A stretch of 64,000 nucleotides of DNA from Octopus vulgaris. Lineage: Eukaryota. Below are positions 44,362 to 46,500 of the stretch, piece by piece. The first letter of the stretch is position 1. Each line of letters starts with the position of its first letter. Both the position numbers and the translations under genes were made by a program. The stretch is from contig OX597827.1 in the NCBI GenBank assembly GCA_951406725.2, positions 49,786,001 to 49,850,000 of the forward strand, read 5' to 3'. The notes beneath the pieces were generated by a model that was given only the letters and a program-made list of their open reading frames with translations, was not told where the DNA came from and searched no databases.

Positions 44362-44783
44362 CTTTACTCTTTTACTATTTTACTTGTTTCAGTGATTTGA
44401 CTGCGGCCATGCTGGAGCACCGCCTTTAATCGAGCAACTCGACCCCGGGACTTATTCTTTTGTAAGCCCAGTACTTATTCTATCGGTCTCTTTTGCCGAA
44501 CCGCTAAGTAACGGGGACATAAACACACTAGCATCGGTTGTCAAGCAATGCTAGGGGGACAAACACAAATACACAAGCACACACACGCATATATATATAT
44601 ATATATATATATACATACATATATACGACGGGCTTCTTTCAGTTTCTGTCTACCAAATGCACTCACAAGGCTTTGGTCGGCCCGAGTCTGTAGAAGACAC
44701 TTGCCCAAGGTGCCACGCAGTGGGACTGAACCCGGAACCATGTGGTTGGTAAGCAAGCTACTTACCACACAGCCACTCCTGCG
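44362..44783 (-). mobile_element. Abundant tRNA-derived SINE of about 400 bp with internal (TA)/(TG) tract and (GTAAAAGA)n tail. Other copies: 39718-39840(-), 51118-51546(+), 54112-54487(-), 57477-57888(+), 62066-62460(+, broken), 62819-63223(+), 63420-63742(-)
   Basis: Repeated GGCGCAGGAGTGGCTGTGTGGTAAG...GGTTCAGTCCC...GCGGTGCTCCAGCATGGCCGCAGTC...TGAAACAAGTAAAAGAG. Confidence 0.92.
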
Positions 44784-44887
44784 CTTACTGTGAACATATT
44801 TATAGAAAGCGCCTCGAACAGAAACCAAGACTACAAGTTAAGGATTGTGTAAAGTCCTCGTTGAAAGCATGTGAGAGATATGGAAGA

Positions 44888-45221: not shown

Positions 45222-45327
45222 CTAAACTGCATGTTTATTAACTTATAGTGTGACTGAGTATTCAACTGACGTGTACTTTATTTACATTATTTACATTTGA
45301 CGGATATTTGTCCTCATCTTTGTTGTT

Positions 45328-45373
45328 AATACAACATTTCGGCTGATATACCCTCCAGCCTTCATCAGGTGTC
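45328..45373 (-). ncRNA. Minimal type I hammerhead motif, slightly decayed
   Basis: GACAC-CTGATGA-A-GGCTG/GAGGGTATAT/CAGCC-GAAAT-GTT-GTATT. Confidence 0.65.
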
Positions 45374-45507
45374 TTGGGGGGAAATTTCAAACTTGGGTTC
45401 TCATTCCTAAGGTATATTTCGATGTTGTTGTTGATGTTGTTGTTAAATCCTTTAAAATGTTTTAGCCCGAAGGCCGCGGCCATGCTGGGGCACCGCCGCT
45501 GGAATAT

Positions 45508-45558
45508 AAAAAATATGGAAGGCTTCACGAATTTGCGTATCATCCTTGCGCAGGGACC

Positions 45559-45598
<40 letters not shown>

Positions 45599-45604
45599 AT
45601 TGCC
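45508..45604 (-). pseudogene. U6: U6 snRNA retrocopy lacking about the first 11 nt
   Basis: GGCAATACATATACTAAAATTGGAACGATACAGAGAAGATTAGCATGGTCCCTGCGCAAGGATGATACGCAAATTCGTGAAGCCTTCCATATTTTTT; ACAGAGA box and AGC triad intact. Confidence 0.97.
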
Positions 45605-45664
45605 TCAGGTCCCTGCCTAGAATCGAACTCGGGTTAGTAGTCCGCGCTCTTAACCACTACTCTA
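45605..45664 (-). promoter_or_regulatory. tRNA-like SINE head with Pol III A and B boxes, fused directly to the U6 copy
   Basis: TAGAGTAGTGGTTAAGAGCGCGGACTACTAACCCGAGTTCGATTCTAGGCAGGGACCTGA; B box GTTCGATTC. Confidence 0.75.
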
Positions 45665-46099
45665 TATCCGTCAAATGTAAATAATGTACATAATTCCTCA
45701 TCTCTTAAATATAGAACTGTACTTTTAACGCATTCTTCAGGTGGAATAAGTATAAGTATGACAAGATTGTATCTTTGTATTACAAGCACAATCCATCTGA
45801 CAGATTTCAATTTTGTCTCTGTCTACTCAATTTCCCTCACAAGGTTTGGGCAAACCCGAGTCTGTGGTGACACGTGCGCACGTTGCTCTGCAATGCGATC
45901 GAATCCAGGACGTGTATAATTGCAAACGCGTACATAAATACATACGCACATACATACTAGCATGCATATACGCACACATATACACACACACATAAACGCA
46001 TAGTAGTACATGCATATATAAATTCATAAATACACACATATGCATACATACGTGCATGCATACATACATACATACATACATGCATGTATACATACATAT

Positions 46100-46500
46100 A
46101 TTACTTACTACTTGTACTTGTGGCGACATTCACCCTGGACGGGTTGAGTCGGCTTCTTCTACTACCCTCGAGGCATCTCGAACCATGGCAGCCCACGCAC
46201 GACGGTCCTGCGCCAGTTCACAGGAGATAGCGAGCCAGTCGCGGTTCCATCGGCGCAGGCCGACCACCTGCGGTGCCGTGAGCACGGAGAGGTCCTCCTT
46301 GATCGTCGTAACCCAGGTCTTCAGCTGCCCGCCCGCGCGTTTCCACCAGTTGGAAAGTGGAGTTGGGAGAAGGACATCACGGCTCAGTTCACCCACCGGA
46401 CGCCTACATGCATGGCCAAACCACCGCAAGCGCCGTTGCAAAAGGACAGATGAAAGGGGCCGCAGAGACAGGCGAAGTCGGAGATTGGCAGTGAGAACAT
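46100..46500 (-). mobile_element. RTE-clade LINE 3' end with (ACAAGT)-type tail
   Basis: RRLRWFGHACRR..WKRAGGQLKTW..DL..LAQDRRAWAAMV. Confidence 0.85.

Follow-up and report, generated by a model that had tools for sequence, protein, structure and literature searches.

The genome of Octopus vulgaris contains a U6 snRNA sequence placed directly behind a tRNA-like head with A and B boxes, which raises the question of whether the ensemble is a new, transcribed mobile element or the accidental product of nested insertions. The locus lies within a window of 64,000 nt, i.e., the whole stretch of DNA that was analysed (contig OX597827.1 of assembly GCA_951406725.2, positions 49,786,001 to 49,850,000). 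The window contains no N, and the genome assembly comprises 2.8 Gb in 227 contigs. We consider it highly probable that the locus is a U6/LINE-tail chimera inside the microsatellite of a Penelope-like element, with two single-copy joins, and that it represents a silent nested insertion generated in two events. It is likely an ordinary nested pseudogene and not a new mobile element.

Read on the minus strand, the locus presents an inverted fragment, an A/B-box head, the U6 copy, a linker, a LINE tail, (AAC)n and a hammerhead-bearing tail that extends to ~45278. The original prediction had described a head, U6, a retroposon tail and a hammerhead tail in series on one strand, and these four parts do read on the minus strand; that description did not include an inverted piece at 45719-45664, which derives from the 3' end of the host element. 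The head (45605..45667, minus strand) has its A box starting at 45664 and its B box at 45628 and carries a 9-nt internal deletion. Motif parsing recovered both boxes as predicted, but neither ARAGORN nor Rfam called a tRNA in the window or in a clean copy of the head. The U6 copy (45508..45604, minus strand) is followed by a 6-nt linker (45502..45507, minus strand), which has no exact match to the flank of a U6 gene or to the LINE and is likely non-templated. The 3' end of an autonomous LINE, with stem-loops and a terminal repeat, occupies 45445..45501 (minus strand). Within it, the tail motif at 45497-45476 was matched nine times in the window and 0 times in 100 shuffles; the original prediction assigned this motif to the commonest SINE of the window, and SINEs do share it. 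The spacer behind U6, previously given as 9 nt, is in fact 10 nt long (45507-45498), its last 4 nt belonging to the LINE tail. Next comes a remnant of the host (AAT)n(AAC)n microsatellite (45424..45444, minus strand), which constitutes the insertion site, and then the 3' part of the host pseudo-LTR (45278..45423, minus strand) with a minimal type I hammerhead motif (45373-45328).

The identity of the U6 copy is firmly established. Rfam model RF00026 matched positions 45612-45509 with 97.8 bits (cut-off 44, E 4e-24), the sole gathering-level Rfam match within the window. Together with the comparison of copies, this confirms the predicted U6 copy at 45604-45508 ending in T6. The copy runs from the eleventh base to the T6, and the alignment reaches the end of the model. 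It differs from the majority of 26 copies at three of 91 positions (45556, 45539 and 45521), and its 5' variant is common to L132, L233 and other loci. The ACAGAGA box and the AGC triad are unchanged in the Rfam alignment, as had been claimed. The predicted absence of the U6 5' stem-loop was also borne out: the first 10 nt of the source variant are missing and no substitute folds in their place (z +1.35), in contrast to the strong folds of intact U6 5' ends (z -3.6 and -5.4). No external U6 promoter is present upstream of the copy, where the pseudo-LTR head is found instead. We rejected a functional U6 gene because of the missing 5' stem-loop, the lack of a TATA motif and the three private substitutions. 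Three variants of the U6 5' stem-loop with compensating changes occur in the genome (L136:1482, L233 and L100/L102), with gene candidates for two of them. Indeed, L136 and L233 look like true U6 genes, with a TATA-like motif ~30 nt upstream.

The sequences on both sides of the U6/LINE piece belong together. A 26-mer from the end of the head yielded 1,839 exact genome matches against 0 for the control, and in most head loci (AAT)n(AAC)n leads on to the same hammerhead tail, with U6 absent. Among the first 30 head copies, 24 presented the hammerhead tail within 1.5 kb and six lacked it. All 24 two-part copies retain at least 10 nt of microsatellite; in 18 of them, head and tail are separated by 10-116 nt of pure microsatellite, and in the other six by 258-1,077 nt including other inserted sequence. 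The 3' part is 90-93% identical to many dispersed copies. Some heads are preceded by a reading frame, and the head follows the end of the ORF in 11 of 15 ORF loci. The longest ORF copy (L228, 569 aa) matched RVT_1 with E 2.7e-6 and 27.7 bits, just below the curated cut-off of 29.6. Relatives of this ORF at E <1e-20 number 2,923; among the 120 listed, three (P0069, P0073 and P0096) carry PF01541, which we take to be the GIY-YIG domain; Pfam gave no direct match to the endonuclease (GIY-YIG-like) pieces of the host ORF themselves. These results indicate that a single high-copy Penelope-like element supplies the head, the (AAT/AAC)n and the hammerhead motif, which together make up its pseudo-LTR. 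The predicted four-part composite is therefore not supported as a unit, since its head and hammerhead tail are one pre-existing pseudo-LTR and both of its composite junctions are single-copy.

The inverted fragment (45664..45719, plus strand) is a 5'-truncated copy of the 3' end of the same host element and includes a ~30-nt tail extension that is absent from the direct copy. Its 30-bp inverted match (45719-45664 against 45307-45278) could be mistaken for the terminal repeat of a MITE or DNA transposon, a candidate that we rejected because the repeat is the inverted pseudo-LTR end of the Penelope-like element. The inverted piece was found upstream of 15 of 30 other host copies, and at the locus it shows 0/52 differences from the column majority of 21 copies. 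A candidate target-site duplication of the host consists of 8 nt at 45725-45718 and 45279-45272, although the 3' member of this pair can also be read as host sequence that differs at one position.

The hammerhead is a putative self-cleaving motif, predicted from motif parsing. Its core and stems parsed in the window and in 28 of 42 copies, which supports the minimal motif of the predicted hammerhead tail, but Rfam called no hammerhead. Four copies satisfied all three criteria of intactness, a low number that is due in part to the parser misreading a shorter variant. The motif at the locus is damaged twice, a single change breaking its palindrome and a single mismatch affecting stem I. The monomer fold of the region is unremarkable (z 0.33), as expected for a dimer-type motif. 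In addition, we observed a retrozyme-like tandem array of at least seven units of ~215 nt of the hammerhead-bearing pseudo-LTR tail (L018/L019/L028, G000:C2:2734380-2736113).

The donor of the tail is likewise abundant. A 31-mer of the tail yielded 1,536 exact genome matches; 17 of 30 copies had the LINE body upstream of the tail, with an upstream ORF matching RVT_1 (E 3e-30). On the basis of its C-terminal motifs, we provisionally label this LINE CR1-like. The remaining 13 of 30 were short tails without U6; in 12 of these the break lies 10-17 nt upstream of the anchor, which places it at the base of the 3' stem-loop. Because short tails without U6 break at the same spot, the fixed breakpoint is a property of the LINE itself. 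The tail folds at -23.7 kcal/mol (z -1.85). The family looks young and has RT frames open over as much as 490 aa (L154 and L179 among L152-L181). It also includes numerous solo 3' ends of ~60 nt whose break lies at the stem-loop base.

We then consider how unusual the U6/tail join is. At the locus, U6 is directly followed on the same strand by a LINE 3' terminus, which are the features of a U6/LINE chimeric retropseudogene. A query of U6 plus tail yielded 40 further matches (40 scored of 1,371 candidates). The exact pattern of a U6 end joined to the tail was found 51 times in the genome, a count that leaves out the window locus because of its private substitution. The U6 5' core had 73 matches; the first 30 of these, inspected by eye, comprised 18 U6 copies joined to the short tail (five of them from one local duplication), six attached to a full-length tRNA-type SINE at its 5' start, two joined to other repeat-like sequence and four joined to nothing recognisable. 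Among 90 fetched loci, a sample biased towards tails in which four rows stem from local duplication and L049 is counted twice, we identified 63 distinct U6 3' ends, 52 of them with tails, and these 52 presented 44 different junctions. Three U6 5' variants were combined with three or more tail types across these loci (in the table, L104 and L109 are labelled B instead of C, and L113 is a fourth type). The diversity of junctions and the mixing of variants and tails indicate that the chimeras arose independently and do not form a U6-headed SINE family. Such a SINEU-like family, which would share a common head-tail junction, the test by which PMC4494074 recognises SINEU as a family, is also contradicted by the abundance of the LINE with the same 3' end and by the frequent presence of its body. 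One chimera is repeated every ~20 kb by local segmental duplication (L094-L098 and L123, G000:C1:132.42-132.53 Mb), and in L130 (about 1390-1590) two U6 copies directly abut each other in head-to-tail orientation.

In contrast to the chimeras, the composite junctions of the locus are unique. The genome-wide search for the head-U6 junction (gap 0-25, two U6 variants) returned one match, this locus, and so did the search for the junction between tail and pseudo-LTR (gap 0-30); these patterns were exact and therefore miss diverged copies. The head was found upstream of U6 only at the window locus among the 63 distinct U6 3' ends of the fetched loci, and a query with the whole 451 nt (115 matches; 40 scored of 5,097 candidates) identified no other locus covering all of it. 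The original prediction had held that single-copy junctions combined with a lack of junction-spanning transcripts would reduce the locus to an inert nested pseudogene, and the first half of this is what we found. What stands of that prediction is an invertebrate chimera of U6 and a retroposon tail directly behind an A/B-box head, with a T6 terminator after it. Insertion at this position is unexceptional: 25 of the 51 chimeras are flanked by a microsatellite on at least one side, compared with 16% of positions drawn at random from the window. Since chimeras favour microsatellites and 6 of 24 host copies carry an insert there, one such event needs no special cause.

The preferred two-event history can be outlined from this anatomy. 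A Penelope-like element would first have inserted a solo pseudo-LTR with an inverted fragment on its 5' side. Subsequently, the LINE reverse transcriptase would have primed on its own 3' repeat within the host microsatellite and copied ~57 nt of the LINE up to the base of the 3' stem-loop. There it would have arrested, as it frequently does in the short tails without U6. After adding a few bases, it would have switched to U6 snRNA as a template, starting from the 3' end of that RNA and leaving 10 nt uncopied. The 5' part of the microsatellite would have been lost then or later, and the fusion of head and U6 would be a by-product of the insertion. We saw no target-site duplication around the U6 insert and no (AAT)n left between head and U6, so that an extra deletion must be assumed. 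The host shows 12/261 differences and a deletion, and the insert 5/146; these ages do not separate the two events.

A possible alternative to the jump is that RtcB ligated U6 to the LINE RNA before insertion. However, linkers vary between chimeras and some U6 copies are joined to the starts of SINEs, and template jumping fits these variable linker bases and joins better than ligation. Joins of U6 3' ends to the 5' starts of two full-length tRNA-type SINE families were observed at L132, L134, L138, L139, L149 and L151 (about position 1590), and such joins are what end-to-end template jumping would give.

Could the head nevertheless drive transcription? One reading accepts the same origin but holds that the head still drives RNA polymerase III, yielding a head-U6 RNA of ~160-170 nt that ends at the T6 and may act as a decoy for U4 or U6 proteins. 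Several features speak for this: the B box core is intact, A and B boxes are in place, no stretch of four T precedes the T6, and the ACAGAGA box and AGC triad are unchanged. At the family level, 17 of 30 copies have an A-to-B spacing of 45 nt, which is the tRNA value, and solo copies mostly start at the head. At the locus itself, however, the spacing is 36 nt and not tRNA-like. With the 9-nt deletion, the two boxes are 25 nt apart, while ~30-40 nt is described as typical of tRNA-type promoters in the part of the source available (PMC12498455). The use of A and B boxes by yeast U6, as described in the portion of PMC9136082 consulted, is a precedent for an internal promoter. Against such activity, the head carries 5/63 further differences, one in the A box and two adjoining the B box, its native leader has been replaced by the inverted piece, and the lost 5' stem-loop has no replacement. 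We therefore regard this RNA as improbable. The decay of the promoter, the hammerhead and U6 suggests that the locus is under no selection. As for transcripts, none of the 24 sequencing runs listed contained half of the sampled words (best 0.33), and RNA-like runs ranged from 0.00 to 0.19. Four runs (DNA included) gave contigs over 45605-45900 that represent other repeat copies, leaving 45605-45624 and most of the unique flank uncovered.

The promoter of the family is a separate matter. The 5' ends of solo host copies lie within 20 nt upstream of the A box in 19 of 30 cases, downstream in four and further upstream in seven, a clustering that departs from even truncation (p 1e-6). This cluster could reflect the mobilisation of a Pol III transcript by Penelope; alternatively, a short hairpin located there could have caused fold-back. 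Since solo copies start at the head and the B box and T6 are intact, the family promoter may be real. It is possible, if somewhat doubtful, that solo pseudo-LTR copies derive from an RNA starting at the head. The fuller proposal, that the pseudo-LTR is a Pol III-transcribed, tRNA-headed unit, a SINE mobilised by Penelope, and that it drives the captured U6 as a stable hybrid RNA, appears unlikely; if true, the head-U6 hybrid would be a snapshot of the birth of a U6-bearing SINE in an animal. Two of the 30 solo pseudo-LTR copies L182-L211 reach the ORF.

Another scenario is that the U6/LINE piece was joined into Penelope RNA or cDNA and that the whole unit was inserted at once, which could found a composite family. 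All parts are co-oriented, the inner piece has no target-site duplication and inner and outer divergences are alike, as such a capture would predict. Yet both junctions are single-copy, and the inner piece, which terminates with the LINE's own repeat, occupies a site used by other inserts. Moreover, the host sequence is continuous across the insert, so that a one-step capture would need two exact jumps. We judge it very unlikely. An assembly artefact among repeats is more remote still, although no public run contained half of the sampled words and no contig bridged the locus, given that the joins follow the rules of other loci (the 3' end of U6 meets the stem-loop base, and a microsatellite serves as the insertion site), that every part carries private substitutions and that the window has no N.

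The nesting of two common processes can be compared with known systems, whose sources were available in part. U6 chimeras with L1, L2, RTE and SINE partners are known in vertebrates (PMC4476161). Those of platypus (U6-L2 and U6-Mon-1) and lizard (U6-L2/RTE/SINE) resemble ours in their 5'-truncated U6 ending in a T run, short non-L1 LINE 3' ends, SINE partners, short or absent target-site duplications and independent origins. In platypus, 72.5% of chimeras have a target-site duplication of 1-9 bp and the rest none (PMC4476161). In contrast, the host here is an invertebrate (the portion of that survey available covers vertebrates and does not contain the word 'invertebrate'), the break on the LINE side is confined to nearly one position, some chimeras link U6 to the 5' starts of full-length tRNA-type SINEs and an A/B-box head precedes the nested copy at the locus. 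Human U6/L1 chimeras formed through RtcB ligation (PMC6789731) similarly fuse U6 with a variable T run to retrotransposed LINE RNA, but the L1 part is variably truncated there, whereas the tails here start at the stem-loop base, often with extra linker bases. The accessible part of a further study, PMC11838501, deals solely with mammalian L1. Crocodilian SINEU (PMC4494074) likewise places an snRNA-derived 5' part on a LINE-derived tail; these are true U1/U2 families with no matching LINE in the part of the source available, whereas the chimeras described here have an abundant parent LINE and junctions that vary between copies.

On the host side, Penelope-like pseudo-LTRs (PMC4209133 and PMC8557442, both in part) share an RT followed by a GIY-YIG-like ORF and a minimal type I hammerhead, and the elements of PMC8557442 also share an inverted 5'-truncated copy and a tail of 30-40 nt confined to one end. 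The pseudo-LTR here differs in beginning with a tRNA-type A/B-box head. Nearest to this arrangement are the Schistosoma Sm-alpha and Sj-alpha elements (PMC2770079, in part), which combine a tRNA-related head and a hammerhead in one high-copy repeat; those are SINE-like, whereas ours is the terminal repeat of an ORF-bearing Penelope-like element. Our literature search, which covered openly available papers outside repeat databases, returned no paper on invertebrate or cephalopod U6 chimeras and no description of a tRNA-headed Penelope pseudo-LTR. The repeat annotation of Octopus vulgaris lists the automatic classes SINE U and U-L1 with one family each in the part consulted (PMC13282606), and these may correspond to the U6 chimeras described here.

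As one nested insertion, the locus itself carries little weight, and it is outweighed by two side results: invertebrate U6/LINE chimeras with a fixed breakpoint, and a Penelope pseudo-LTR with solo copies starting from a tRNA-type head. Dozens of U6 chimeras with a fixed LINE break, linkers and joins to SINE starts offer a test of template jumping versus RtcB ligation outside vertebrates. The Penelope terminal repeat, whose solo copies start at its tRNA-type head, may for its part represent a SINE-like unit that is mobilised by the Penelope enzyme. Finally, the surroundings of the locus are themselves rich in retroelements: a tRNA-type SINE copy flanks it at 44600-44785 (minus strand), and the 3' end of a LINE with a short terminal repeat, which we take to be RTE-like from its motifs, lies nearby at 46110-46400 (minus strand).
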